From an uncultured Nitrososphaerota archaeon (GTDB lineage Archaea; Thermoproteota; Nitrososphaeria; Conexivisphaerales; DTJL01), in contig CAWJIE010000003.1 of NCBI GenBank assembly GCA_963842885.1, forward strand, positions 420,253 through 484,252: a stretch of 64,000 nt of DNA, in the 5' to 3' direction. This document shows positions 13,704-64,000 of this stretch, piece after piece. The position numbers and the translations under genes were made by a program. The notes beneath the pieces are model-generated. The model ran no database searches. It was not told the origin of the DNA and saw only the letters and a list, made by a program, of their open reading frames with translations. Position 1 is the stretch's first letter, and every line of letters begins with the position of its first letter.

Positions 13704-13732
13704 CCACAATGAAATCTGAAATTCGCTTTGTG

Positions 13733-13824
13733 CGACAGTCGTCCAGCCTGGTCTAGGACATCAGCCCTCCATGATGTGAATCGGGGAAAGCTGGTAACAC
13801 GGGTTCAAATCCCGTCTGTCGCAC
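13733..13824 (+). tRNA. Intron-containing tRNA. Splicing guided by the bulge-helix-bulge motif gives anticodon UCC (Gly) with an unusual C33. A Trp(CCA) reading is possible only with a one-base register change.
   Basis: Hand-folded cloverleaf:
- acceptor GCGACAG / CUGUCGC, discriminator A
- D arm GUCC-AGCCUGGUCUA-GGAC
- anticodon stem UCAGC / GCUGG
- T arm ACGGG-UUCAAAU-CCCGU
The 17-nt intron at 13773..13789 sits at the canonical 37/38 site in a clean bulge-helix-bulge. CCUC pairs with GGGG, the bulges are CAU and AAA, and an inner helix GAU/AUC is capped by a GUGA tetraloop. Confidence 0.8.
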
Positions 13825-13947
13825 CTTGATGCCCGAATTGATCTGTGTTGACAGCTGGAAGACCTTTTCAATTGATTTTTTCCCTCGGGCTATGTCCCGT
13901 CATTGACCGGCGAAAGCGTCTGCCTGGAGACGCCCGTATAGCTCCGG

Positions 13948-20148: not shown

Positions 20149-20246
20149 GGGCCGGTCGTCTAGCCTGGTCTTGGACGTCGCTCTGACTCGCGTTGTCGAC
20201 GCGCAGAAGACGGCGAAGATCACAGGTTCAAATCCTGTCCGGCCCA
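20149..20246 (+). tRNA. Intron-containing tRNA, most likely Val(GAC)
   Basis: Hand-folded cloverleaf:
- acceptor GGGCCGG / CCGGCCC, discriminator A
- D arm GUCU-AGCCUGGUCUU-GGAC
- anticodon stem UCGCU / GGCGA
- T arm ACAGG-UUCAAAU-CCUGU
There are 29 nt between the anticodon-stem strands. Removing 20188..20209 (22 nt) leaves the loop CUGACAC. The intron contains a CGCGU/ACGCG helix. Confidence 0.8.
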
Positions 20247-23975: not shown

Positions 23976-25973
23976 TCAGAACCGCCAAGAGAGCCACCCC
24001 TGCCGACACAGCGACCCCGATGGGGAACCAGTCGGTCGTTCAGGTGGTTCGCGTCCGCGGGGGGAAGGGAGGCCCCCGCCGACCCGCTGGTGCGTCACTT
24101 CTGCCAACGTCGTCCTATTCTTGGGTGCTAATTGCCACCAAGAGGACGCATATATCTTCAAAGCTTCGGTCAAGCGACCAAGCGTGCTGTCCTCCTTCGT
24201 CTGGAGCATGACGAAGGCACCGGATGCGACGATCAAGGCAGCCGCCACGATCACGACGATGTCGAGCACGTTGATCGCGAAGGAGCCCTGAACGCTCATG
24301 GGCGAGCTCACTGGTATGGGTTGAGGTCCAGTTCCGCTCAGTGCCCCAGACCAGCCTTCGAACGAATACAGGAAAGAGGGGGCCGGCGCGAGGGACACCG
24401 TGGCGCCGCTCGGGACGTAGATCGTCCCGTTCGTGCCAGATGCGACGGATCCGGATGTGGAACCATAGGTGTAGCTCACCGATCCCCCATCACTGGCCGC
24501 GATGGTCAGGCCGGGGTAGAACTCGGCGACCTCCGTGATGGGCGAGGAAACCGTCAAGGAAGCGCTACCACCAGTCCCCGTGTAGGAGCCCGTCCCCGTG
24601 TAGGAGCCCGTCCCCGTGCCCTCCCATCCGGCTAACTCCCATCCTGGGGATGGTAAGGCGGTGAGGGTGAGCGGAGCGCCCACGCCGTACCAGCCGCCCG
24701 AAGAAGAGACACTCCCCCCATCCGAGGAACTTGGCGCGACGGTGACCGAGAACTGTTGGTAATAGGTGACGGAGATGAGCGTTGAAGACGAGACCGTCCC
24801 AGCAGCTGAGCTGTTGTCCGCCATCCACCGCACTGTAGAGTTTGAGCCTACTAGAGGGTTGGTCACGGACCACGATTGACCGGAGTCCACCCAGGAGTCC
24901 ACGGGAGAGCCTGTGAGCGTCGCAGAGAAGGAGCCGCCGAACTGTTCCGCCGTCAATGTCGGAGAGGAGGGGCTCCCTCCACCGGCCAAAGCATATTCCA
25001 GCTTGAAATCGTATTGGTGATAGAAGTTAATCGTCAGGTTCGCTCTTGGAGAGGCATTCCCGACTGAACTCGGCGTCATCCACCTTTCGGAGGCTCCGGA
25101 GCCGCCCAACAGACCAGTGACCGACCACGACGAGCCAACATCGAGCCAGAGGGACTGGGGCGCTTGGTTCAAGCTGACAGATGAAGAGGTGCCGAGGCTC
25201 ACGTAGGTCAGCTGGGGTGGCGACGGTGTCCCCTCGCCAACCACCGAGTAGGAAAAGGAGCCCTCGAACTGCTCGGTGAAATTGAGAACCACGGATGCCT
25301 GCGGAGAGTCGACGAGCAATACCCCCGAGGACTGGTTCGCGGCATATCTAGTCCCTTCCCCCACCGATGAAGGAGGCACGGTCCAATTGTATTGTCCGTA
25401 AGGCAGGTTTGCCTGAGCGACAAAAGAGCTCTGGCTCGAAGAGAAGCTCTGGCCGTTGAGGATGACTGACCAGGCCGTACCGCTGGGCAGGCCGTCTTCG
25501 GCGAATGAGACGGTCTCATTTCCTGGTTCTGTGATGGGCCTGTAGGTCACGAGGAATTGGACGGTATTGCTCGTCACCTCGGTCGTGTCCATGATAGACG
25601 TGACGGCGCGAAACACGCCATCCATGGGGATGTATAATTGGTACAAGTATCCCCCTGTATCGTTCGATTGCAACCTGAAGTTCGACCAGCTGCCGTCGGG
25701 CCAGGTGAGGGTGAGGAGGATGCCGGCTACACGTCCAGGTGTCAACACGCCTTCGAAGGTGATCGTATCGTAGACGTGAACCGAAGTGCTGTTGATGCCA
25801 AGGGTAAGGGTTTCGTTCGAAGGCTGAGCCTGCGGAGGTTTGGCGATCTCGGCCCGAGCGACCTGAGCGCGGATGGCGCCAAGGTTGGAGGCGAAGGGGC
25901 CCGGCTGGCCAAGGACGCCTCCGATCAGGAAGAGGGCGCTAGCCAACACCAAGTACCGATAGAAGGTATGCAA
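23976..25973 (-). CDS. Secreted, C-terminally membrane-anchored surface protein with repeated beta-rich modules
   Basis: 665 aa:
- N-terminal signal-like segment (YRYLVLASALFLIGGVLG)
- repeated modules of about 85-90 aa (F.Y.V.G.G.PS.P.LTY...G.......W.D.GS.WSV...L.GS...ERW...YY.Q[YF])
- a divergent InlB B-repeat-like module (GGSVSSSGGWYGVGAPLTLTALPSPGWELAGWEG)
- many N-x-S/T sites and a C-terminal TM helix (IVVIVAAALIVASGAFVML). Confidence 0.75.
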   Translation of the reverse strand: MHTFYRYLVLASALFLIGGVLGQPGPFASNLGAIRAQVARAEIAKPPQAQPSNETLTLGINSTSVHVYDTITFEGVLTPGRVAGILLTLTWPDGSWSNFRLQSNDTGGYLYQLYIPMDGVFRAVTSIMDTTEVTSNTVQFLVTYRPITEPGNETVSFAEDGLPSGTAWSVILNGQSFSSSQSSFVAQANLPYGQYNWTVPPSSVGEGTRYAANQSSGVLLVDSPQASVVLNFTEQFEGSFSYSVVGEGTPSPPQLTYVSLGTSSSVSLNQAPQSLWLDVGSSWSVTGLLGGSGASERWMTPSSVGNASPRANLTINFYHQYDFKLEYALAGGGSPSSPTLTAEQFGGSFSATLTGSPVDSWVDSGQSWSVTNPLVGSNSTVRWMADNSSAAGTVSSSTLISVTYYQQFSVTVAPSSSDGGSVSSSGGWYGVGAPLTLTALPSPGWELAGWEGTGTGSYTGTGSYTGTGGSASLTVSSPITEVAEFYPGLTIAASDGGSVSYTYGSTSGSVASGTNGTIYVPSGATVSLAPAPSFLYSFEGWSGALSGTGPQPIPVSSPMSVQGSFAINVLDIVVIVAAALIVASGAFVMLQTKEDSTLGRLTEALKIYASSWWQLAPKNRTTLAEVTHQRVGGGLPSPRGREPPERPTGSPSGSLCRQGWLSWRF

Positions 25974-29114: not shown

Positions 29115-31347
29115 CTACACCACCTTTCCTAACGCCGCCAGAACCTTCCATGGCGTTGCCGGCTGCGACCTGACCCATTTCCCTGTCGCGTTGTAGATTG
29201 CGTTGACGATTGCAGCTGCTGGGGGCGACAGCGGCGGCTCCCCCAAGCCCTTGGCGCCAAACGGACCGATGGCATCATTCGACTGGACGACGATTGGAGT
29301 GAAGCTGTCCGGGGGCGGTATGTCCATGCTGGTGGGGAACCTGTGGCCCAGGAAGCTGGGGTTCAGCGGAACTCCGTTGTTCTGGTCGACGTACCATTGC
29401 CACATCAGCTCGTACCCAATGGACTGCACCGTTCCGCTTTCGATCTGACCTTCGCAGGCCAGCATTGAGTCGGCCGTTCCCACGTCGTCGGACTGCACCA
29501 CTCTCGTGACCTCGACGGCACCCGTGTCTTCGTCGACCGCGATCTCGACTGCTGCGGCGGACGTCGTCCTGATGACCTTCGATGTGTCATATGGCGTGTA
29601 CCCGTAGCCCACGATGGGTGACGTAGACGCGGCCAGGACGGCCGCGTGCGTCACGAACTTGGTCGAGTCGCTCGTGAGGTAGATCTTCCCTAATTTGGCG
29701 GAAAGCTTGTCGGGCGTGGTATTCAGCATCGGGGCGGCGACCGCGAAGAGCTGTGCTAAGACGCTCTCGCCTGCAGCCTTTACGGCGTGTCCCGATGTGA
29801 CTGTCCTCGTGCTTCCACCTTGTCCCCCGCAGTTCTGGGTTACCGCCGTGTTGCCGTATTCGCCAACCTTCACGTCCCCTGCGTTGGCGCCCAGCGCTTC
29901 AGCCGCGACATAGGACAAAGAGGAGACCGACGCCTGTATGCTCGACTGGCCGACGTTCAGGAAGAACCCGCCGTCGGCAGTCGTCGTGATGATGGCACAG
30001 TCGACTTCGCCTCCCCACTGACCCTTGTTGCAGACATATCCGCTGATGCCGATTCCATAATACCTGCCGTCGGGGAGCACCACGGTGCCCGGAGCTTTGT
30101 GCTTTGTCGACCATCCGATGCTGGTGGCCACGTCCTGGATGTTATGATTCAGGGCCATGCTTCCGAAGGGCAATCCCTGCACGCCGGTGTTGAGGCCCAA
30201 TGACCCGTTGTCCAAGTCGCCCAGTTTCTTTATGTTCTTGAGCATGAACGCAACCTTGTCCATGCTCAGCTTCTCGCACAACTGTTCGATTACGGGCTCC
30301 ATGTCGAAGAGGCCGCCTGGCTCTCCTACGCACCTCCAGTACGCGCCCTGGGGCTTGTTCGTGACGATCGTGTGACCGGTGAAGCTGGCGTTGGGCACAT
30401 TGAAGGTAATCTGCAGAGGCGATATCGCGTCGCCCACTGCCGGCCACGGGAAGGCCCCGATGTCGGTCCAGAATGTGGCCTGTATGGCCATGAGCGTCCC
30501 GTCGCTCTTGGCGCCCAGCTTTATGTCACCCCTGTCGGCGTACTGCTGCGTTGCGGATAGGTAGTTCTGGTGCCTGGTCAGTTGGTACTGCACTGGGGCC
30601 CCCGCCTTCTTGGCAAGGACCGCAGCCACGACATTGTGCGTGTTGAAGTTAAGGTCACCGAACGCCCCACCGGTGCCGTGGGTGATGACGGTCACGTTGT
30701 TCAAAGGAATGTTTAGGGCCCCGGCTAGGGTGGCCCGGAAGGAGAACGGGTTCTGAGAGTTCGTGTAGACGGTGAGTTGGTCCTGATTGCTTTGGTCCCA
30801 AACGGCGATGCAGGCCCTAGGCTCGAAGGGTCGAATGCTGGTATGACGCTGACATCCCTATGGTGTCTTCGACGACTACGTCCGAGGCGGCGAAGCCTGC
30901 GTTGACGTCGCCCCAAGTTGCCGTCAGAGGCTCTCCTACTTCGTTGGTGTTCGGGATGAGTCCGGTCAGCGGCGCGCCAGAGGCCATTGCCTTGTCGATG
31001 TCCACAACCCACGGCAGCGTCTGATACGTCACATTGACCAGTTTCAGGGCTTGGGAAGCGATGTGCTCGTCCGTGGCGGCTACGCCGCACACCTCTTGAC
31101 CTACATAGAAGAGCTCCTGGGTCATTATGGGGCAGTCCACGTACGTCGTGACTGCCTTGACGCCCGGAAGGGCCATCGCGGCGCTGGTGTCTATGGCGGT
31201 TATCTTCGCATGGGGGTACGGGCTGCCTAGCATCCTCGCGTAGAGCTTGCCTTCGAAGACGTGGTCGGTCGAGAAGTCGTGCTTGCCCGTTGCCTTCTGC
31301 AGTCCAAGCTTGTCTGGGTTAGCATTGCCTAACACATTGAGAGACAT
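29115..31347 (-). CDS. Molybdenum hydroxylase large (molybdopterin-binding) subunit, set 1, frame-disrupted near 30822-30830
   Basis: ORF 30817..31347 is the N-terminal domain (LYARMLGSPYPHAKITAIDTSAAMALPGVKAV...) ending ...YQHSTL. The conserved continuation EPRACIAVWDQ...LTVYTNSQNPF... runs in another frame into ORF 29115..30704. The coding strand reads acc ctt c gag cct. Span length is 3n+1. Confidence 0.85.
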
Positions 31348-40693: not shown

Positions 40694-43042
40694 TCAGGAA
40701 GGTTCGCCTCCATGGATGAGCCCGTAAACACGCTCCGGCGTGAGCGGTATCTCGTCGGGGGCCTTCCCCACGGCGTCCTTGACCGCATTGGCGATGGCCG
40801 CGGCCATGGGGATAAGGGCCATTTCGCCTACCCCCTTCGCTCCGAAGGGGCCATAGCTGAACAGGTCTTCCGAGCAGACGAGCTCCTCCACTGGGGGCAT
40901 GTCCCTGACCGTGGGCACCAAGTAGTCTGTGAAGTTGGGATTGAGCACCCTGCCCTCCTTGGTGACCACCTCCTCCATCAAAGCGTAGCCCATCCCCTGG
41001 GCCACCGCACCGTGTACCTGAGCCTCCACAAGGCCGGGGTTCAGTATTCTGCCGGAAGCCAGGCCGGGCCAGACGCGCTGGACGGACACGGCGCCCGTCT
41101 CCGTGTCGACCTCGACCTCTACGATGACCGCCATATAGCTGAAGGCAGGGTAGGCGAAGCCGCTGCCCTTCTCCTCGTCGAACTTGCCTTTCGGCACGAA
41201 GAAGTAGCCGGTGGAGGCGGTCTCCACCCCCGTGGTGTAGCATTCATTGATCAGGTCGCCCCAAGCGACCTTCCTCTGCCTGAACCTCGAGTCGAAGACG
41301 AATCCCTTCTGAATCATCACGTTCTTGGGTTCGCAATCGAGCATCTTGGCGGCCGCTCCCTCCAAGTTCCTTCTCAGGCGAGAAGCCGCGACCAACATTC
41401 CGGCCATACCGACGCTTGAGCCTCTTGAAGCGTGGGTTGCCCCCGTGTCCGGGGCGTCCGACGTGCCCATATGCATGGTTATCGCGTCGATGTCCACGCC
41501 TAGGACTTCAGATATGACCTGCGCCGTGCTCGTCGTAGTGCCCTGCCCCATCTCTACGATGCCTGTGTAGGCATCTACGCTTCCGTCCCTCCTGATGACG
41601 ATGTATCCGCTTGACCAATCGGGGACTCCCCTGCTGGTGCTAATCCCGTGCCAGGCGCAGGCGACGCCAATCCCTTGGGCCCTGCCGTTGGCAGCCCAGG
41701 CAGGCCTCCTCCTCTTGGCGCTCCAGGAGCTTCCCGTGGCCGTCTTCTCTAACGCTTCGTAAATCCCCACCGAGTCGACGAGCCTCTGGCCGGTAATCGT
41801 CAAGGATCCCTCCCTTAGGAGATTCTTCAGCCTCAGCTCCACGGGGTCCATCTCCAACCTGTCGGCTATGGCGTCGATGTTGGATTCGGCAGCCAGTTGA
41901 ATCGAAGGGTTGCCGAAGCCACGGAAAGACCCTCCGTAAATCATGTGTGTGTAGACAAGCCGCCCGTCCACCTTCGCGTTGGGGACGAAGTACGGGCCGG
42001 AGGCATGCATCGTGGCCCGCCAGAGGGTGAAGGGGCCCCTATTGGCGTAGGCTCCCGCATCGAATAGGATGTTCACGTCGATGGCCTTGAGCAGGCCATC
42101 GGAGGAGGCTCCGGTCTTGTATCTGATTATCGTCCTCTCACGCTTGCAGTGAGAGCTGAAGCTGTCCTCTCTGCTGTAGTTTAACATGACCGGCCGGCGC
42201 AGCTTATGGGCTGCCACCGCCGCCTGGGCCGAGACAATTGGGCCCATGTCGTCCTTCCCTCCGAATCCCCCCCCGATGGCCGACTGGACAATCCTGACTT
42301 CCCTCTGCTGCCACCCAAGGACCCGGGCGACAATCTTCTGCGCAAGATGAGGGTACTGGCTGCATGAAATGACTGTCATCCCTTCGGAAGTCGGCATGGC
42401 CAAGGCCCCTTCCGCCTCGATGTATGCGTGGTCTTGGTAACCGGTCCGGTACGTCCTTTCTATGATTACGTCGGACTGGGAGAAGCCCGTCTCTATGTCG
42501 CCCCTCCTCACCCTGGTTTCGATGGCCACGTTGGACTTGTGCTCTTCATGCACCAGAACCTTGGAGTCAGCGGCTTCGGAGGGATCGTAGACCGCCGCCT
42601 TCTCTTTCAGCTCGACCTTGACGGAAGCAGTCGCCTCCTCGGCGGCCTCGGGCGACTGGGCGACGGCCAGGCCGACGGGCTCCCCGTGGAACCTGAGTAC
42701 CCCGTCGGCGAACGCGGGCTGGTCGAGAATGAAGTAGCCGACCTGGTTCTTGCCTGGCACGTCCCGAGCCGTTATGCCAGCTACGAAGCCTGGGACCTTC
42801 GCCGCTTCGTCGAATCGCACTCCGAGGAGGTGAGCCGAGCTGACGGGGCTCTTGACGATCCTCGCGAAGAGCATGTCGCGGGAGAAGTTATCCTCCATGA
42901 ACTTCCCCTTCCCCAGGACCTTCTCCATGGAGTCGACCCTCGTGACCGACTTCCCGACGACGACGAGATCCTTGGCGTGGAGCCATCGATCTAGGAGCCC
43001 TTGATAGTCCTCCATCTCCGTCTTCGACACGCTGGTGCTCAT
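40694..43042 (-). CDS. Molybdenum hydroxylase large (molybdopterin-binding) subunit, set 2
   Basis: 782 aa. Motifs: AIGGGFGGKDD, HAYIEAEGA, GQGTTTSTAQVISEVLGV and GPFGAKGVGE. This is the canonical xanthine dehydrogenase / aldehyde oxidase family. Confidence 0.9.
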   Translation of the reverse strand: MSTSVSKTEMEDYQGLLDRWLHAKDLVVVGKSVTRVDSMEKVLGKGKFMEDNFSRDMLFARIVKSPVSSAHLLGVRFDEAAKVPGFVAGITARDVPGKNQVGYFILDQPAFADGVLRFHGEPVGLAVAQSPEAAEEATASVKVELKEKAAVYDPSEAADSKVLVHEEHKSNVAIETRVRRGDIETGFSQSDVIIERTYRTGYQDHAYIEAEGALAMPTSEGMTVISCSQYPHLAQKIVARVLGWQQREVRIVQSAIGGGFGGKDDMGPIVSAQAAVAAHKLRRPVMLNYSREDSFSSHCKRERTIIRYKTGASSDGLLKAIDVNILFDAGAYANRGPFTLWRATMHASGPYFVPNAKVDGRLVYTHMIYGGSFRGFGNPSIQLAAESNIDAIADRLEMDPVELRLKNLLREGSLTITGQRLVDSVGIYEALEKTATGSSWSAKRRRPAWAANGRAQGIGVACAWHGISTSRGVPDWSSGYIVIRRDGSVDAYTGIVEMGQGTTTSTAQVISEVLGVDIDAITMHMGTSDAPDTGATHASRGSSVGMAGMLVAASRLRRNLEGAAAKMLDCEPKNVMIQKGFVFDSRFRQRKVAWGDLINECYTTGVETASTGYFFVPKGKFDEEKGSGFAYPAFSYMAVIVEVEVDTETGAVSVQRVWPGLASGRILNPGLVEAQVHGAVAQGMGYALMEEVVTKEGRVLNPNFTDYLVPTVRDMPPVEELVCSEDLFSYGPFGAKGVGEMALIPMAAAIANAVKDAVGKAPDEIPLTPERVYGLIHGGEPS

Positions 43043-52800: not shown

Positions 52801-55152
52801 CTAGGCTCCCTCGGGCCCTCCCTTCCGTCCAAGGGCCTCAATCAGGCGTTCGGGCGTCACCGGAAGCTCGTAGAACCTCAGGCCCACGGCGTTGTGGATG
52901 GCGTTGACCACGGCGGCGGCCACCGGGTTGTAGGAACCCTCGCCTAACCCCTTGGCGCCGAAGGGCCCCGTGGGCTCGTAGGTGTGCGCGAAGAACGACT
53001 GGAAGTCCCCGACGCTGGGGAGGTCGGGCGCCGTAGGCAGCTTGTAGTCCGTCAGCATCCCCCTGTTCATGAAATCTCCCGTGCGCTCGTCATACGGAGT
53101 GTCCTCCAGGATGGCCATGCTCCAGCCCATGGCGAAGCCCCCCTGCAGCTGCCCCTCGGCCATCTGGGGGTTGATCACGGTCCCTACGTCCGCGGCAGCC
53201 ACGACCTTCAAGGGTCGGACCTCCCCCGTCTCTGTGTCCACCTCCACCTTCACGAAGTATGTCACGAAGTGAGGGGGGCCAGAGGTGGGCCTGTAGCTGT
53301 CGATGGCCGCCACCGTGCCCCAGTTCTTCTGCCGTGCATAGGAGGTGACTTCGCCGACCGTGGCCCTCTTGTGTGGGAGCGACTCGGCCAGGATCACACC
53401 CTGACCCAGCTCTTCGTCGGGGATTATCTTCAGTGCACTCTGGTTGACCTCCAACATCTTCGAAGCGTAGGCCAGGAGCTTCTCCCTCGCCTGGAGCGCC
53501 ACCTTGAGGACAGCTCCGCCGCCAGCGTACACGCCGCGAGAGGCGTGCGTGGCGACGTCATAGATGGTCGTCTGAGAGTCGCTCTGCACGATGGTTACGT
53601 TGTCTAGGGGCACGCCCAGGGCCTCAGCGGCGATCTTGGCAAGCGCCCTGTACGTCCCCCCGCCGTGGTCCACCAGCGCCGTCACTACGTCCACCGTGCC
53701 ATCCTCGTTTATCTTGACCATGGCACCGGAGTAGTCTATGACTGCGCCGGAGATGGGCGACCCTGCGCTGGAGGTGTGGAAACCCCTCGCCATGCCGATT
53801 CCTTCCCTGAGGACTCCCCCCTTCGACTCCGGCGCTCCCCTGTCCTTCCACCCGATCATTTCGGCGCCCTTCACGAGCATCTCCTCTACTCCGCAGCTCT
53901 GTATGATCGTCTTGACGGTTATTCCCTGCCCGTAGAAGACATCTCCCTTGCCGACGTAGTTCTTCAGCTTGAGATCCAGCGGGTCCATGCCCAGCTTGTC
54001 CGCCAGCTCGTCCATGAACGTCTCCACCATCCACGACGTCTGGGGGTTTCCGTAGCCCCTCATGGCGCACGACGGGACCTTGTTGGTGTACACCGCCCGG
54101 CCGTCGTACCTGAAGTTCCTCCACTTGTAGTAGGAGGCCCACCAGCCGAAGACGGTGCTCAGGAGAGGATACGCCTGGACCTGATGGGCCCCTATGTCCA
54201 TGATCATCTCCAGCGTCGAGGCCGTGAGCGTGCCATCCTTCTTGGCGCCCACCTTGAGCTTGAAGTTCATCGAGAAGGAGGCGTGGTCGCGCATGTCCTC
54301 CTCCCTTGTGTACACGATTTTGACGGGCCTCCTGGCCTTGATCGCCACCGCGACCGCGATGGGCACGAGGATGTTCGTGTGGATGCTGGAGCCGAAGCTG
54401 CCTCCCAGAGAGGGCTTCTTCACGTTGATCTTGTTCATGGGGATGCCGAAGATCTCGTGAATCAGGATTCTGGTGTTGTGGATGGTCTGGGTGGTGGCCC
54501 AGATGGTGAAAATACCGCTCGACTCGGGGATGACGAGCGCCGCCTTGGTTTCGAGCTGAGAATGATACCTCCTGCTGGACCGATACTCCCTTTCAAGGAT
54601 GACGTCAGCCTGGGAGAAACCTTCCTCCGGGTCGCCGTTCTCGACCTTCATCGCGCAGGCGACGTTCCTTTCGATGGTCAGAGGCCTGTCCGCCAACAGT
54701 ATCTTCTCATGCACCAGACGCTTGCCCGACAGGGCCTCCTCCGTGTCCATCACCGGCTTCAGCACTTCGTAATCTATCTTGATCAGCTCGGCGGCCCGCT
54801 GGGCCGCCTCCTCCGACTCCGCTGCGACGACGGCGATGGGCTCGCCGACGTAGTTGGGCTCGTCGGTCAGGACCCTCCAGTCCTTATACGTCGTCTCGTC
54901 CGTGCTGGCAAGGCGGGGGTTGAACTGCTTCCGCGGCACGTCCTTGTAGGTCAGACACAGGGCCCCTGCCTTCTCGGCCTCCGACGTGTCTATGGACCTC
55001 ACCTTGGCCCTGGGGTATGAGCTCCTGACGATTCGCCCGTACAACATGTAAGGAGCTCTCATGTCGGCCGCGAACCCGCTGCTCCCCAGTGCCTTGGGGA
55101 CGGAGTCGAGCGCCCCGACATCCTTCCCAATCACATGAAAGGGCTCCGTCAT
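52801..55152 (-). CDS. Molybdenum hydroxylase large (molybdopterin-binding) subunit, set 3
   Basis: The start is taken at MTEPFHVIGKDV (internal Met of ORF 52801..55419), preceded by a TATA-like atatattatt about 30 nt upstream. Motifs: SLGGSFGSS, HSQLETKAA and GPFGAKGLGE. Confidence 0.88.
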   Translation of the reverse strand: MTEPFHVIGKDVGALDSVPKALGSSGFAADMRAPYMLYGRIVRSSYPRAKVRSIDTSEAEKAGALCLTYKDVPRKQFNPRLASTDETTYKDWRVLTDEPNYVGEPIAVVAAESEEAAQRAAELIKIDYEVLKPVMDTEEALSGKRLVHEKILLADRPLTIERNVACAMKVENGDPEEGFSQADVILEREYRSSRRYHSQLETKAALVIPESSGIFTIWATTQTIHNTRILIHEIFGIPMNKINVKKPSLGGSFGSSIHTNILVPIAVAVAIKARRPVKIVYTREEDMRDHASFSMNFKLKVGAKKDGTLTASTLEMIMDIGAHQVQAYPLLSTVFGWWASYYKWRNFRYDGRAVYTNKVPSCAMRGYGNPQTSWMVETFMDELADKLGMDPLDLKLKNYVGKGDVFYGQGITVKTIIQSCGVEEMLVKGAEMIGWKDRGAPESKGGVLREGIGMARGFHTSSAGSPISGAVIDYSGAMVKINEDGTVDVVTALVDHGGGTYRALAKIAAEALGVPLDNVTIVQSDSQTTIYDVATHASRGVYAGGGAVLKVALQAREKLLAYASKMLEVNQSALKIIPDEELGQGVILAESLPHKRATVGEVTSYARQKNWGTVAAIDSYRPTSGPPHFVTYFVKVEVDTETGEVRPLKVVAAADVGTVINPQMAEGQLQGGFAMGWSMAILEDTPYDERTGDFMNRGMLTDYKLPTAPDLPSVGDFQSFFAHTYEPTGPFGAKGLGEGSYNPVAAAVVNAIHNAVGLRFYELPVTPERLIEALGRKGGPEGA

Positions 55153-55448
55153 TTGCGGGACTGAGTTGTCCTTCGAATAATATATACATTTGAAACGCTT
55201 GAGAGCCTTCGGTCCGCGGAGATACTGGACCTGAACAAAGGTGATGATTAATAGTCGGCTTCTCAAGAGACGGACAGGGATGCTATGCAGATAACAATCC
55301 AAAGGAGGTATCTCAAATACGTTGAAGCTTTGCTCGAAACGGGAATACTGACGGAGAACAATGGACTGGCCAAACCACTTAAGCAAACTCTGCGGTCTTC
55401 TCTTTGGAGAAAACAACACGATCTACGCGAATCTCGAAGGCGGCTCTC

Positions 55449-57180: not shown

Positions 57181-59589
57181 TTATGATGTCTTTGGACTCT
57201 CGATTGGGACCTGGTCATGCTTACCTTTGGATTGCCTCGGCAACACGACCTTCCAAAGGACGATTCCCACCGCCACTAGGATGATAGCTATCAGAATGGA
57301 CGTGTTGATCCAATCTATCGAGAAGCTTGCCTGCAGGCTCTCGGGCGAGTTCACTGCTATGCTGACTCCAGTCTGGCCTGAAGATGTCGCTCCCGACCAC
57401 CCGTCAAATTTGAACAGGAAGAGCTCAGGGCTGGCTGTAAGCTGGACTGTTGACCCCAAGGGCACGAATAGTGTCTTATTGGTCGAGCTTTCAACTCTGC
57501 CAGTGAGCGAGGATGAGCCATAGGAGACGCTTCCGAAGCTCGAAGTGTCAACTGAGAGACCAGGATAGAACACAGCGCTCTCGATAATTGGATTCTGGAC
57601 CGTAATGGTATACGGATTGCTCGTTCCGTCATAAGAGCCGACTCCCGAAGCGTTCCAAACCACGAACTGCCACCCCTCGTTTGGATTCGCAGAAAGCTGA
57701 ATCTGTTCGCTGGAATTGTACCAGTCAGTCTGAGGAGACACCAACCCGCTCTGCTCAGGATTGAGGAGGATTTGAACGTAATACTGATGATAATAGAGGG
57801 GAGACAAGACGACGGCCGAGCTCACCGAACCTGTGGTTGCCTGTGCCAGGACCGACCATCTCTCGTTCGAAGAAGCATAGGCAGCTCCGTCGTAGCTGAA
57901 AGACGTACCTGCGTCAAGCCAATTGGGACTGGGGGTTGCGGCTATCGGAGAAGCGGCTGACACTCCGAAAGCGGTTCCAGACAACACCGGAGAATTGGGG
58001 CTCCCGCCACCCATGACGACATATCCTACGGAGATGGCGAATTGGTGATAGTACATCACAGAGAATGAGGCACTGGATCCAACCACGCCTGTCGCGGACT
58101 GAGTGGCCCACCGTTCGTTTCCGGACGATCCCGGCAACGGATTCTGAAAGGAATACGATGAGCCAGCGTCCACGAAGACCGAAGAACCGAGTGTAATGTA
58201 CGCAGGCGACCCGAACTCGCTGACGCTCACGCTTGGCTGCGAGTAACCGGTGCCACCGTTCGCGACGCCATAGAGGAAGGATGCGCGAAACTGGTGGAAA
58301 TACACGAAGCTCAACCTCATGCCATTAGTGGGAGTGCCACTGGTCTGCTGTTGCGTGTCCCAAATCTCGTTCGAGGTTGAGCCGGACAGCACGCCGTCCG
58401 CGCTCCACGAAGACCCGCTGTCCAGGTAGATGGTGCTAGGAGCAGTGGAAAGCTGGATGCTGTACCGAATACCGCCGAAAGTGTATGTGAAGGATGGTGG
58501 AGAATATCCACTTCCACCGCCTTGAACCGAATAGCTCACGGTAACCCTGTCAAGGTTGTATCCTCCTGTGATGAACAGATACGCGTCCGAAGCCTCCGTG
58601 GCGCCGTTGGAAGAGAAAAACTGCAACGTGTTCGGATTAGTGTAAGAAACGACGCCCGTGGAGACCGAGAACAACACCTGGCTAGTGCCCGGCACATATT
58701 CATCTATCCACATCCAGGCTGAAGATTTCGCTATGTCGTTTTCCCAATACGTCACAGTTGCCTCTCCTCCATAGTAAGCAGAGGAATGGTACCATTCCGT
58801 CATGAGCCCAGTGAAGAAACCTTTGCTACTGGAAAACGATGAAGCGAGACCTACGAAAGAGGAAGAGCCCTCCTGGCTGAACGTCTGTTCGGCGCCTGCC
58901 CCCGTGCTGTAGTCATGTGCCAGCATCACTACGTTGCCGCCGGAGAAATACAAGTTAAGGAGGACCGTATCCCCCTGGTTGACGGTCCCTGAGAAGGATT
59001 GTACTCCACCTCCTCCACTTGCTGGGTAGATTGAATGGCCACTTGAGTCAAAGACTTCGTAGAGCATCTTGAAGCCCGAGGTGTCGGGCCAATTCCACGT
59101 GAGGCCCACCTGATACCAGTATCCCTGGTCGGTAAGGCCATTCAGCAGATAGCCTGGGCCGTACCCATCGCTGTCCACCTGAGCCACGGCGGTGACGTTG
59201 TAGGCCATGCTTGTGAAGCTCTGGGTGAAAGTCAATCCCAGCTGTTCGTCGTAGGTCGGGGATGGATCGTCAAGTGGGTGATTTGGGCTGATTGCAGGTG
59301 GCAGCTCCAATCCAGCGAACCGATAGCCTTGTTGTTGGTCCGAGACGGAATTGGGGCTGACGGGTGCCAATATCGTGGGACGGCACAGCGAGCAAGAGTA
59401 AGAACCGGCTGATCCCGGTGCCGTTGAAATTTCAGCCCCCGTTGCGGAGGGATTCATTACAGAGGGAGTTGCTCCAATGGCGGCCCCATGAGGTGCTGCC
59501 CAGCCAAGAGCGACCAGCATTACGACTACCAGAACGCAGGCAGGTAACCTCTTGCTAATCCGCCTGATCAGGCAGCCATGGACCTTCAT
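57181..59589 (-). CDS. Secreted, C-terminally anchored surface protein: thermopsin-like / beta-sandwich peptidase-like N-terminal domain plus repeated modules
   Basis: The start is taken at MKVHGCLIRRISKRLPACVLVVVMLVALG (signal-like). The N-terminal domain (YLLNGLTDQGYWYQVGLTWNW...MLYEVFDSSG...GDTVLLNLYFSGGNVVMLAHDYSTG) tentatively resembles thermopsin or glutamic-peptidase folds. After it come 5-6 modules of the same type as in 23976..25973 (...W.D.GS.WS...GS..ERW...YYHQ[YF]), an InlB-B-repeat-like module and a C-terminal TM helix. Confidence 0.65.
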   Translation of the reverse strand: MKVHGCLIRRISKRLPACVLVVVMLVALGWAAPHGAAIGATPSVMNPSATGAEISTAPGSAGSYSCSLCRPTILAPVSPNSVSDQQQGYRFAGLELPPAISPNHPLDDPSPTYDEQLGLTFTQSFTSMAYNVTAVAQVDSDGYGPGYLLNGLTDQGYWYQVGLTWNWPDTSGFKMLYEVFDSSGHSIYPASGGGGVQSFSGTVNQGDTVLLNLYFSGGNVVMLAHDYSTGAGAEQTFSQEGSSSFVGLASSFSSSKGFFTGLMTEWYHSSAYYGGEATVTYWENDIAKSSAWMWIDEYVPGTSQVLFSVSTGVVSYTNPNTLQFFSSNGATEASDAYLFITGGYNLDRVTVSYSVQGGGSGYSPPSFTYTFGGIRYSIQLSTAPSTIYLDSGSSWSADGVLSGSTSNEIWDTQQQTSGTPTNGMRLSFVYFHQFRASFLYGVANGGTGYSQPSVSVSEFGSPAYITLGSSVFVDAGSSYSFQNPLPGSSGNERWATQSATGVVGSSASFSVMYYHQFAISVGYVVMGGGSPNSPVLSGTAFGVSAASPIAATPSPNWLDAGTSFSYDGAAYASSNERWSVLAQATTGSVSSAVVLSPLYYHQYYVQILLNPEQSGLVSPQTDWYNSSEQIQLSANPNEGWQFVVWNASGVGSYDGTSNPYTITVQNPIIESAVFYPGLSVDTSSFGSVSYGSSSLTGRVESSTNKTLFVPLGSTVQLTASPELFLFKFDGWSGATSSGQTGVSIAVNSPESLQASFSIDWINTSILIAIILVAVGIVLWKVVLPRQSKGKHDQVPIESPKTS

Positions 59590-59781
59590 CAAACCTGGTT
59601 CCAGCCCTCTCACAAATCGGCCGCAGACTGACTGCAAGTGACGCATGAATAGCCGGCGGCTTCCGGGCGCTGAAGGCCCGACAAGTGGGAATCCCTTGCG
59701 AGAAGCGAGCCGAACATGGAGTTCCTTATGAGCCTCGTGAAACACGTGCTAATAGACCCCCGGGTAGAAGGGAACATAGTT

Positions 59782-61811: not shown

Positions 61812-62058
61812 GGTGATTGGATGCCCCGATAGTTAATCCTTCTGCGAAGCGAGGGCGGAGGTGAGTAGAGAGCTGGTCAGGTGGGAGCTGCGGAGCTTGG
61901 CTCCACTTTGAAAGGGACGCCATAAGGGCCTCGAAGGCCACGGTCTCCATTTACGGCTGTGATACCGATGCGCTCTCGTCTATGTACGGGCTTCTGGTCA
62001 GGAATGGGACGAACGGGCATGAGGGATACGGCTTTACGAATACACGAGGCAACTATTA

Positions 62059-63137
62059 TGGCAAGACCCAACTTAGCGGCCATCTTCGTACCTTCGGCGG
62101 CCTCGCCCCCTAGACTGCTTGTCGGCCTTCTTCTGCTCGACCTGTGTGCCGTTAAATGTCGTGAGAAGCTCTTACTTTGGACCTTGAAGGAGGGGTTTCA
62201 CTATGTTTACGAGCGCAACGGGAACGGCAGGGAGCGCTACGTCTATTATTGTTCGGCCTGCTCGTGCGTCCTGGGCGTCAGGAAGGAGGTCCAGTCCGTC
62301 GGCGACCTGATGGACGGCCTCGAAGGGAAGTGCCCCGGATGCGGGAACACTTTGGAAGGGTCGATGGAATGCCGCTTCATCAAGGTGGCCGACGAATGGT
62401 CGGACATCGACCTGGCTCCACCTCGCAGGAGCAACGGGGAGCGCGTCGCCTTCCACCGGGCGTCCACGCTCATGCCCTTCTCGCTTGGCTTCCCAAAGCT
62501 CGACCTGCTGGTCCAGCCCTTGGGCCCCGGCAAGCTGCTGATGCTCACAAGCGGCGGCGCGCCCGTCGCAGCGGAGCTGGCGACGCTCAGGGCCCAGCTA
62601 TCATATGAGAGGGGAGGCCTCGATTCGACTTCGGTCTTCGTGGACGGGGGGAACTGCTCCCATCCGTACCTGTTCGCCTCCTTCGCCCGCCAGCATGGAA
62701 TGGACCCGAAGAGGGCTCTGAGGAGGGTCGTGACGTGTAGGGCCTTCACGATGTACCAGTTGGCTGACCTCGTTTCGAACCATTTGATTGATGCCGTAGA
62801 CGAGAACGCGTCGAAGCTCGTAGTCATAGCCGACCTCCTTGGCACATTCAACGAGCCGGGGCTGGACTGGAGGGAGGCCGGACGGCTCCTGGACGCCGTG
62901 AAGGGCGGCCTAGACAGGCTGCTGGCCAGGGACGTACATGTCCTCTGCACTCTCGCCTCTCCCAGTAGGCTAGACAATCTGGTCTTCCCCTGGGCGGACA
63001 AGCTTGTGGAGATGCCCGTCCTGAACGGAACGGTGCGCGCTAGGCTTGTCAGGGGGACCCCGAAGTTCAGGGCGACATGCGATTTCAAGATGGAAGACCT
63101 GCTCAGGTCTGCCTTGGTCAGGGCGGTGGCCCGCTGA
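62059..63137 (+). CDS. Zn-ribbon protein with a RadA/RadB-like RecA-fold core lacking a Walker A lysine
   Basis: The start is taken at MARPN (a TATA-like ctttacgaata lies about 25 nt upstream); the ORF track starts at 61959.
- Zn ribbon: CSACSC...CPGCG
- FPKLDLLVQPLGPGKLLMLTSGGAPVAAELA where GxxGxGKT is expected
- SVFVDGG...FARQHGMDPKRALRRVVTCRAFTMYQL (compare RadA YIDTE..F.PER...GLDP..L..I..ARA)
- KLVVIADLL (Walker B-like). Confidence 0.55.
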
Positions 63138-63397
63138 TGGGGAGGACCGTTCCTTCTTTCAGGATCGCTGAGGCCCAAGAAGCCGAAGAGTGGAAGGCCT
63201 TCAGGAGGGCTCTCCCCAAGGGAGAGAGAAAGCTCTTCGACGAAATGCTGGACACCGCCCGGCTCTACATTTCAGCCTCTTCCTCCGCCGTGAGGACCTC
63301 TCGATTCGAAGGCGTGGCCATGGCCCTCCTCTTCCATCACTTCAGGGAACTCAGGGAGATCATGGAGCTCACCGGAGAAGGGAGGGGCGCCGTGTGA
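63137..63397 (+). CDS. Small helical protein, paralog A (unknown family)
   Basis: 86 aa. The ATG overlaps the upstream TGA by 1 nt. It shares the pattern W+.F..AL....R.LF.EM....(about 20 aa)..E.[LV].M.L.F..H with the next gene. Confidence 0.5.
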   Translation: MGRTVPSFRIAEAQEAEEWKAFRRALPKGERKLFDEMLDTARLYISASSSAVRTSRFEGVAMALLFHHFRELREIMELTGEGRGAV

Positions 63398-63645
63398 GCC
63401 TGGACGGAGGGGAGATGCTCAAGGAGATGGAGAGCTGGAGGGGCTTTGGGGACGCCCTTCGCGCGGAGGACAGGGAGCTCTTCAGAGAGATGATGAGGCA
63501 ATGCCAGGAGCTCCTCCCCGCCATGGAGGCCAAGTCCTCCCCCTTCCCCAGCGAGGCGCTCTTCATGGGCCTCATCTTCCTCCAGCACAAGACCATCCTC
63601 TGGCTGCAGAAGGAAGTGGAAAGGCTCGGGCGCGAGCGGGGATGA
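63394..63645 (+). CDS. Small helical protein, paralog B (unknown family)
   Basis: 83 aa from a GTG in a GTGTGA overlap (or the ATG at 63415). It aligns by eye along its whole length with paralog A. Confidence 0.5.
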   Translation: MSLDGGEMLKEMESWRGFGDALRAEDRELFREMMRQCQELLPAMEAKSSPFPSEALFMGLIFLQHKTILWLQKEVERLGRERG

Positions 63646-64000
63646 ATGGCTGGGTCCTTGACCTCTACCCGGGGGACCCCGGTGAGATGGTCGTCTGGCT
63701 GAAGGAGGGGGCTAACAGGGCGACCAGGCTCGTGGACCGATGGACTCCCCCGTTCTACGTGGCCTGCGACTCCAAGGACGATTTAAGGGCCCTGGCCGGA
63801 GAGGAATGGCTGGCTTCGGAGGCGGAACGGTTGGCCTTCGTCGCCAGATATGCGAAGGTCACCGACAGGGAGAGGAGCGAAGTCCTCGAGATCAAGGTCA
63901 GGGACGCCAAGGCCATGCTGCGCCTCGCCGCCAAGGTGGAGGGCTCGAAGCCCTTCGGCTTCTACAGGATATACAATGCCGACGTGCCCCCCGCGCAGAC
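63642..64000 (+). CDS. polB: Family B DNA polymerase, N-terminal region (partial; continues beyond the window)
   Basis: ATGA overlap with the previous gene. GWVLDLYP....EMVVWLKEG...R...RWTPPFYVA............V....R.......EIKV...........V.......YRIYNADVPPAQ follows the N-terminal domain pattern of PolB enzymes (ILD.DY...G.P.I.L.......PYFY.......IYE.DI.F..RY). Confidence 0.6.
   Translation, partial: MNGWVLDLYPGDPGEMVVWLKEGANRATRLVDRWTPPFYVACDSKDDLRALAGEEWLASEAERLAFVARYAKVTDRERSEVLEIKVRDAKAMLRLAAKVEGSKPFGFYRIYNADVPPAQ

Follow-up and report, generated by a model that had tools for sequence, protein, structure and literature searches.

A probable PolB2 mutasome operon with duplicated PPB2 genes and a zinc-ribbon iRadA in an uncultured Nitrososphaeria archaeon

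We analysed a 64,000-nucleotide stretch of contig CAWJIE010000003.1 from an uncultured Nitrososphaerota archaeon (the window), the last 1.9 kb of which carry four plus-strand open reading frames (ORFs) that encode iRadA, PPB2a, PPB2b and PolB2 and are chained by overlapping stop and start codons. Because the products directly match published PPB2a, PPB2b, iRadA and PolB2 sequences, we assign the locus to the published iRadA-PPB2-PPB2-PolB2 family, in its duplicated-PPB2 form. We conclude that the locus very probably encodes a PolB2 "mutasome," which is a multi-subunit B-family translesion DNA polymerase. An earlier note on this DNA, made from the sequence without database searches, took these genes for a PolB accessory module that had not been described; the module has in fact been published (PMC4104785; PMC11791011), with duplicated PPB2 defining operon group 2 in the second of these reports.

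The association of PolB2 (Dpo2) with an inactivated RadA and a small helical protein of arCOG07300 was first noted in 2013 (Makarova & Koonin) and analysed further in 2014 (PMC4104785), and the partners were renamed iRadA and PPB2 by Timinskas, Timinskas and Venclovas in 2025 (PMC11791011). Using AlphaFold-Multimer and AlphaFold 3, the latter study modelled a heteropentamer of PolB2, iRadA and three PPB2 in 40 species. In these models, PolB2 binds one iRadA via a loop that mimics the Rad51 oligomerisation motif, the PPB2 trimer docks asymmetrically, and one N-terminal MGRT arm of PPB2 reaches into the cleft between PolB2 and iRadA, close to the DNA (PMC11791011). PPB2 is described as a three-helix protein of ~90 aa that bears a conserved N-terminal MGRT arm, with Arg as residues 3 and 9; where an operon has two PPB2 genes, only one product carries the arm, and the best models contain one arm-bearing PPB2a and two PPB2b (PMC11791011). 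From Sulfolobus genetics and biochemistry, PolB2 is a polymerase without proofreading that DNA damage induces and that chiefly extends primer ends which are mismatched or lie opposite a lesion (cited in PMC11791011). The supplement of the same paper lists a group "2 (iRadA-PPB2-PPB2-PolB2)" for a Nitrososphaera sp., with sequences (MCY1154020-MCY1154023). The window locus resembles that system in having the same four genes in the same order, an arm on the first PPB2 only, IVD in place of DTD in the polymerase and an iRadA without Walker A, with identities of 43-50% for the two PPB2s and 30-45% for iRadA and PolB2. It differs in lineage: it comes from non-ammonia-oxidising Nitrososphaeria, and the genome nearest to it carries the label Conexivisphaerales.

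Among prokaryotes, the PolB2 mutasome is the sole B-family translesion polymerase predicted to have several subunits, and it is known so far as a predicted complex. The module in the window is known and opens no new category; its one small lineage-specific addition is the zinc ribbon on iRadA, alongside useful comparative detail. With this locus, the known mutasomes gain a clean four-gene form that is strongly conserved in mesophilic Nitrososphaeria of soil and peat, a clade in which arm-bearing and arm-less PPB2 are always separate genes and iRadA has an extra zinc ribbon. This clade offers a useful natural setting in which to test the published 1:2 PPB2 heterotrimer model and to examine the recruitment of the complex to DNA, and "hypothetical proteins" in its annotations can be named iRadA, PPB2a, PPB2b and PolB2.

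Subunits encoded by the operon

The structural model indicates that iRadA is a Rad51/RadA-fold protein, the ATPase of which is predicted to be dead because the GKT of Walker A is deleted. The protein scored 25.2 bits against Pfam Rad51 (gathering cut-off 22) and weakly matched the NCBIfam RadA models, with the Pfam and NCBIfam matches covering the core only. An AlphaFold2 (AF2) model built from 35 homologues (predicted local distance difference test score, pLDDT, 76) had RadA/Rad51 ATPase cores as its top Foldseek matches in the PDB (E 1e-13; target-normalised template-modelling score up to 0.78-0.80), which supports the RecA fold that had been proposed by eye. The destroyed P-loop that went with this proposal is also borne out: TSGGAPVAAE occupies the expected Walker A position, and in the alignment of the family profile with RadA, GEFGSGKT pairs with the consensus 'sgeaas' followed by a 3-residue gap at GKT. 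Neither Lys nor Thr occurs at the P-loop position in any of the 35 homologues, and a Walker B-like hhhh-x-D strand is retained (D217). We considered an active RadA/RadB recombinase paralogue as an alternative identity and rejected it on the lack of an intact Walker A GxxxxGK[ST], the GKT being deleted in 35/35 homologues. At least 184 database homologues of iRadA were found, and those with a taxon label are assigned to Nitrososphaerales, Nitrososphaerota or Thaumarchaeota. The window protein is 30% identical (E 2e-35) to the published iRadA of N. gargensis, including its CxxC…CxxC, and 33% identical (E 8e-23) to a published Bathyarchaeum iRadA that has no ribbon. A second RadA-like ORF of 442 aa was observed immediately upstream of iRadA in a "Candidatus Gagatemarchaeum" locus (L035, 4600-5925), and it matches the iRadA profile with E 2e-42 over residues 157-376.

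The N-terminus of iRadA is a zinc ribbon, which takes the place of the helical helix-hairpin-helix domain of RadA. Its six cysteines (C23, C26, C28, C50, C53 and C63) are invariant in 35/35 aligned homologues, and AF2 predicts short beta-strands in this region (pLDDT 75-82); the CxxC…CxxC ribbon already read in the sequence corresponds to C23/C26 and C50/C53. The same CxxC…CxxC pair occurs in iRadA of N. gargensis and other Nitrososphaera, and the ribbon is absent from the published iRadAs of Sulfolobales, Desulfurococcales, Bathyarchaeota, Thermoplasmatota, Lokiarchaeota, Heimdallarchaeota and Micrarchaeota. A search with the zinc-ribbon domain alone against 1.84 billion representative proteins returned 17 clusters, all of iRadA length or shorter, and the shorter matches are probably fragments. 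Among these representatives phmmer found the ribbon in no other protein context and gave no clue to its origin. Neither zinc nor a ribbon domain on iRadA is mentioned in the text of PMC11791011 or in its text supplements. From these comparisons, the iRadA zinc ribbon appears to be confined to Nitrososphaeria, and it is the sole aspect of the module that we did not find discussed in the literature. The ribbon is predicted from its sequence to bind metal, and a function in binding DNA or a partner is speculation.

The two small genes are paralogues of each other (30% identity, E 4e-6), as the earlier note had recognised, and its prediction that they are helical agrees with the AF2 model of PPB2a, which has helices at residues 7-25, 28-47 and 54-78. 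Relative to four relatives, the ratio of nonsynonymous to synonymous substitution rates (dN/dS) is 0.03-0.09 for PPB2a and 0.08-0.21 for PPB2b, which indicates strong purifying selection on both ORFs and provides the coding signal expected of genuine genes. PPB2a is 50% identical (E 3e-28) to the published Nitrososphaera PPB2a MCY1154021 and PPB2b is 43% identical (E 1e-22) to the published PPB2b MCY1154022, and close PPB2a homologues bear the precomputed label PF26485 (DUF8156). Through these published homologues and the precomputed label, two proteins that had been considered unassignable are placed in PPB2, arCOG07300 and Pfam DUF8156. Scans of the Pfam and NCBIfam libraries returned no family for either protein, the PF26485 label coming from the contig and homologue tables only, and a literature search found no paper on DUF8156. 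A PPB2a profile search collected 2,964 proteins at E up to 0.001. The PPB2a N-terminus reads MGRTVPSFR, and PPB2a starts [M/L]GRT[VI]PSFR in all related loci, bar a few assembly-damaged copies; G2, R3, T4 and R9 are invariant in 14 loci, as are M1-T4 and R9 in 32 database homologues. PPB2b starts VSLDGG in the window and M/V-[ST]-L in all loci, with no arm, which means that the MGRT arm is restricted to PPB2a in every locus, as in the published rule.

The window ends within the fourth gene, the 119-aa N-terminus of which is 36% identical (E 2e-23) to the N-terminus of N. gargensis PolB2, which upholds its identification as a family B polymerase. Sequence beyond the window end was reached via iRadA homologues; the exact PPB2a sequence had no match in the contig collection. 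Contigs with 99%, 90% and 83% iRadA identity hold the same four genes, and the full-length PolB2 orthologues are 752-758 aa long (loci L001 and L006 at 90% iRadA identity and L004 at 83%). When the L001 PolB2 was aligned with the Pyrobaculum PolB structure 5mdn, motif A (DFSALYPN) was intact, motif C read HGIVDS against YGDTDS (DTD to IVD), and motif B read KWIGVTSFGYLG, with N to V and Y to F changes. In the exonuclease motifs, FD is changed to FL in Exo II and DxE to DxD in Exo I. Across related loci, the motif A Asp is retained in 37/37 matches and the first motif C Asp is missing from 32/32 (31 HGIVDS or HGIIDS, one HGTVDS). The orthologues accordingly keep the motif A Asp and the second motif C Asp and lose the first motif C Asp and the Exo II Asp, so that the catalytic motifs, which the earlier note had proposed to inspect for integrity and subgroup, are intact at motif A, degenerate at motif C and Exo II, and of the PolB2 subgroup.

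Database comparisons of the L001 PolB2 point the same way. Its first 400 aa are 45% identical (E 1e-126) to N. gargensis PolB2, and it is 32% identical over 220 aa (E 7e-33) to PolB2/Dpo2 of Stygiolobus caldivivus (Sulfolobaceae), in a match that includes the motif B KW[IV]xVxSFGYLG. B-family polymerases in the PDB match it strongly in the polymerase domain only, as does S. solfataricus PolB1 (1s5j; E 2e-27). The PolB2 clade is recognised by a retained motif A Asp, a first motif C Asp that is usually replaced and a missing exonuclease active site. By these sequence comparisons, we conclude that the polymerase belongs to the PolB2 clade and not to PolB1. Some PolB2 genes of the related loci are longer, at 1,120-1,290 aa, and contain LAGLIDADG homing-endonuclease inteins in the polymerase domain (L020 7443-11303; L041 1802-5638; L021 4931-8299). 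The PolB2 ORF of L019 is also long, at 959 aa.

Table 1. Features of the predicted mutasome locus, in window coordinates
Feature	Position	Strand	Description
Putative archaeal promoter	62147..62157	+	motif GCCGTTAAATG, with TATA-like TTAAAT at 62152-62157; inside the N-terminal extension proposed earlier
iRadA	62184..63137	+	317 aa, TTG start, stop included; RecA-like core at residues ~97-309
N-terminal zinc-ribbon domain of iRadA	62232..62384	+	residues ~17-67; C23-x2-C26-x-C28 … C50-x2-C53 … C63
Degenerate P-loop (Walker A remnant)	62544..62576	+	LTSGGAPVAAE, residues 121-131
PPB2a	63137..63397	+	86 aa, three-helix, arCOG07300, Pfam DUF8156; MGRT arm with Arg3 and Arg9
PPB2b	63394..63645	+	83 aa, PPB2a paralogue without MGRT arm; GTG start
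PolB2	63642..64000	+	first 119 codons only; gene continues past the window end

Organisation and conservation in Nitrososphaeria

The earlier note described a single co-directional operon coupled by overlaps, and the four ORFs and three overlaps are all present. The iRadA stop TGA (63135-63137) overlaps the PPB2a start ATG (63137-63139), the PPB2a stop TGA (63395-63397) overlaps the PPB2b start GTG (63394-63396) as GTGA, and the PPB2b stop TGA (63643-63645) overlaps the PolB2 start ATG (63642-63644). The middle junction had been given as GTGTGA at 63392-63397; the overlap stands, and the reading of its start codon is amended, since the GTG at 63392 is the final codon of PPB2a and the in-frame PPB2b start is the second GTG, at 63394. 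Among the window and the fetched loci, iRadA and PPB2a overlap by 1 nt in 42/45 measurable loci, PPB2a and PPB2b by 4 nt in 39/46 loci, and PPB2b and PolB2 by 4, 20 or 29 nt in nearly all loci. Because the overlaps are conserved across these loci, we conclude that they are not due to chance. The stoichiometric expression that had been read from the overlaps is unsupported, having been an inference only, and the best published models contain PPB2a and PPB2b in a 1:2 ratio. A minus-strand ORF of 310 aa lies antisense to iRadA (62246-63178) and is most likely a by-product of high GC content rather than a gene.

The iRadA start had been placed at an upstream ATG, which lies at 62058-62060 rather than at 62059. 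This codon is probably not the start, and we rejected it on the basis of homologue lengths and promoter position: homologues have 309-317 aa, and their first residue corresponds to TTG 62184, and the motif GCCGTTAAATG, which falls inside the supposed extension, is invariant in 7 close relatives, the upstream flanks of which are otherwise unrelated. Sequence conservation among the relatives ends upstream of this motif. Its TATA-like TTAAAT begins 32 nt upstream of TTG 62184, and most of about 40 loci have a TATA-like hexamer 29-36 nt ahead of the iRadA start codon. TTG 62184, a short way downstream of a conserved TATA box, is the most likely start of the gene. Because the box begins 32 nt upstream of the TTG, its position suggests a putative promoter from which a leaderless or near-leaderless mRNA would start close to 62184. 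A CTCTC…CCAAA(T)-like motif was also seen ~55-65 nt upstream of the iRadA start in L009-L050 (e.g., L013 5922-5950), which in many loci places it ~25-35 nt upstream of the TATA-like box; it is missing from the sub-clade of the window, and it may be the site of a regulator or no more than upstream sequence that the loci share.

Scanning one genome for each GTDB species yielded 45 loci, which all come from uncultured non-ammonia-oxidising Nitrososphaeria, with the module present once in each genome. The closest of these genomes (90%) is the one labelled Conexivisphaerales, and "Candidatus Gagatemarchaeum" is among the others. The Thermoplasmatota, in which the earlier note would have sought the homologues, are the wrong lineage, since both the homologues and the 45 module-bearing genomes are Nitrososphaeria. 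The order iRadA, PPB2a, PPB2b, PolB2 is kept in every locus with enough sequence, which establishes the linkage of the first three genes to polB. In five species (L009, L029, L010, L012 and L033), PPB2a and PPB2b are parted, exactly at their junction, by unrelated genes, which leaves iRadA-PPB2a and PPB2b-PolB2 as separate halves of the operon; by eye, the insert of L009 (7206-9793) contains a minus-strand aminopeptidase-like gene and an AbrB/PIN-like pair, and that of L029 (7200-9302) a minus-strand gene that resembles an M13-type peptidase. Four of the metagenome-assembled genomes whose isolate names start with MFD (L008, L036, L045 and L050) have iRadA, PPB2b or PolB2 broken up among two or three frames, which probably reflects assembly frameshifts rather than pseudogenes.

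A further 14 loci of the Nitrososphaera group, mostly from ammonia-oxidising Nitrososphaera spp., encode an iRadA with CxxC…CxxC that is transcribed divergently from PPB2a-PPB2b-PolB2, whereas the window has four co-directional overlapping genes. These were found in a scan seeded with N. gargensis iRadA, and N. gargensis itself was not among the returned loci. The four-protein set with a zinc-ribbon iRadA appears, from these loci, to be a class-wide feature. In L052-L059, L061 and L063, an intergenic region of ~250 bp separates the divergent iRadA from PPB2a-PPB2b-PolB2, and TTG is often the start codon of Nitrososphaera-group PPB2a (LGRT…). In the published N. gargensis entry, the only PPB2 is a PPB2b-type protein (operon class 1a), and a small PPB2a ORF may be unannotated there.

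Proposed translesion synthesis and alternative readings

On the published models, the locus would encode a complex of iRadA, PPB2a, PPB2b and PolB2 in a 1:1:2:1 ratio, with one MGRT arm lying in the cleft between PolB2 and iRadA, next to the DNA. The proteins may be made by coupled translation from a leaderless polycistronic mRNA. PolB2 would be the catalytic translesion subunit, with an extender role by analogy with Sulfolobales, and the zinc ribbon could offer a lineage-specific extra contact for DNA or a partner protein. The closest experimental counterpart is the Dpo2 locus of Sulfolobus/Saccharolobus islandicus (PMC4104785), which has the same three families, an IxD motif C, a dead exonuclease, an MGRT PPB2 and an ATPase-dead iRadA, and which is the only system with experimental data, namely damage induction, a translesion extender role and a requirement in mutagenesis (via PMC11791011). 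Unlike the window locus, Sulfolobales have a single PPB2, an iRadA of ~190 aa without a zinc ribbon and a shorter PolB2 with a more decayed exonuclease domain, which is ~32% identical to thaumarchaeal PolB2 over palm and fingers. A more distant likeness is to the E. coli Pol V mutasome (UmuD'2C-RecA-ATP), in which a translesion polymerase is bound to a RecA-family protein via an oligomerisation-like motif and the N-terminal arm of a small oligomeric subunit reaches the active site (PMC11791011). However, Pol V is a Y-family polymerase, its RecA is an active recombinase rather than a dedicated dead paralogue, and the UmuD' dimer has an unrelated fold, so that the resemblance is one of analogy and not homology.

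Several points weigh against a translesion mutasome. The evidence for polymerase activity and damage induction comes from Sulfolobales only (cited in PMC11791011), and the pentamer comes solely from published AlphaFold-Multimer models. The window itself holds 119 PolB2 codons, and the catalytic motifs were read in orthologues (90% and 83% iRadA identity). The best NCBIfam PolB models, NF004416 and NF004418, which are short "type B DNA-directed DNA polymerase" models, match the full length but fall below their cut-offs. The PPB2a monomer model is of low confidence (pLDDT 66); with it, Foldseek gave no PDB match at E < 5, and the reported similarity of PPB2 to sigma-factor N-terminal domains was not reproduced. 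Finally, inspection by eye of the iRadA and PolB2 C-termini showed no canonical PCNA-binding motif; the L001 PolB2 ends without a visible QxxLxxFF, and the weak N. gargensis motif KRTLSEFT aligns by eye with TRATCDFK in the window iRadA, in which the hydrophobic position 4 is not conserved. The clamp-binding PCNA-interacting peptide motif is an optional feature, present in only a fraction of PolB2 mutasome systems.

The degenerate motifs raise the question of whether the complex synthesises DNA at all, and a catalytically inert regulatory complex at stalled forks or origins has been proposed (Rogozin 2008; Makarova et al. 2014, PMC4104785). Loss of the first motif C Asp and the Exo II Asp, the altered motif B (N to V, Y to F) and the deleted Walker A of iRadA would all fit such a role, and activity of thaumarchaeal PolB2 is argued by analogy with Sulfolobales. 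We nevertheless regard an inert complex as improbable: S. islandicus Dpo2, with the same IxD, is an active polymerase that is needed for damage-induced mutagenesis (via PMC11791011), and no related locus has lost the motif A Asp or the second motif C Asp. The LAGLIDADG inteins in the polymerase domain of several orthologues also speak against it; inteins are typically found in functionally constrained sites. The earlier note had suggested a polymerase holoenzyme or repair module, which was the right direction insofar as a translesion mutasome is concerned, and it had pointed to the PolB1-binding proteins of Sulfolobus and to an integrated element, neither of which fits. A replicative holoenzyme akin to Sulfolobus PolB1-PBP1-PBP2, with the small proteins as processivity or stability subunits, draws on the presence of two small proteins encoded beside a B-family polymerase, which is the basis of that analogy. 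However, PolB1 belongs to a proofreading clade, and the PBP genes lie outside any polB operon with a RadA paralogue, whereas the polymerase here is of PolB2 type, with a degenerate exonuclease and motif C. The match to PolB1 (1s5j), limited to the polymerase domain, is much weaker than that to published PolB2 over the N-terminal 400 aa, a PPB2 profile found no solved structure among PDB sequences even at E up to 10, and Thaumarchaeota already have PolB1 and PolD for replication (PMC4104785). We consequently rejected a PolB1 holoenzyme, which we hold to be extremely improbable.

The replication module of an integrated mobile element (casposon, pipolin or provirus) is likewise very improbable. 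It would be consistent with the differing genes that flank the operon in closely related strains, which are SufC in the window and L005, TFIIB in L001, L002 and L006, and a MacB-type ATP-binding cassette (ABC) transporter in L004, and with the frequent horizontal transfer among archaea that is suggested by the published PolB2 tree (PMC11791011). The differing flanks fit the mobility that has been proposed for PolB2 operons (PMC11791011), but they do not turn the module into a mobile element. Next to it lie Suf, pyruvate kinase, ribosomal and other housekeeping genes; the large window ORFs that were checked have ordinary chromosomal functions (e.g., a major facilitator superfamily transporter, pyruvate kinase, an ADP-forming acyl-CoA synthetase and a 2-oxoacid:ferredoxin oxidoreductase), and a gene for a SufC-like ABC ATPase lies immediately upstream of the operon. 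Among these ORFs and the flanks of L001 and L004 there was no integrase, Cas1 or viral gene, terminal repeats not having been searched for. The GC content of the operon (61-63%) is within that of this part of the window (54-64%), the polymerase is not protein-primed and groups with cellular PolB2, and each of the 45 species genomes has the module once. With housekeeping neighbours and no anomaly in GC content, the integrated-element option is set aside.

Beyond the translesion mutasome itself, we tentatively propose a more specific scheme, which we consider rather doubtful. In Nitrososphaeria, the module may be an obligate four-protein machine, unlike the three-protein form studied in Sulfolobus. 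The ribbon would provide a contact that is lacking elsewhere, for instance to a damage sensor, RPA, PCNA or DNA, in systems that show by eye no canonical clamp-binding motif. One PPB2a and two PPB2b would form a fixed heterotrimer, and assembly would proceed via iRadA-PPB2a and PPB2b-PolB2 sub-modules. Assembly from two sub-modules is suggested by the five species with insertions exactly between PPB2a and PPB2b and by the divergent gene arrangement in ammonia-oxidising Nitrososphaera.

Other features of the window

No orc1/cdc6, DUF72 or SRAP gene was found among the window neighbours of the operon. Elsewhere on the minus strand, three paralogous genes for large subunits of xanthine-dehydrogenase/CoxL-type molybdoenzymes occur within 26 kb (29115-30704, 40694-43042 and 52801-55419), the first of which lacks the N-terminal hammerhead domain. 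Two large Ser/Gly/Thr-rich proteins (57181-59745 and, on the minus strand, 23976-25973) each have a divergent InlB B-repeat domain and look secreted or membrane-anchored; by sequence reading, the product of 57181-59745 has hydrophobic stretches near both ends. The window also contains two tRNA genes of 92-98 nt (13732-13825 and 20149-20246), the length of which suggests archaeal introns; the first is tRNA-Gly(UCC), and the second was found by Rfam and not by ARAGORN.

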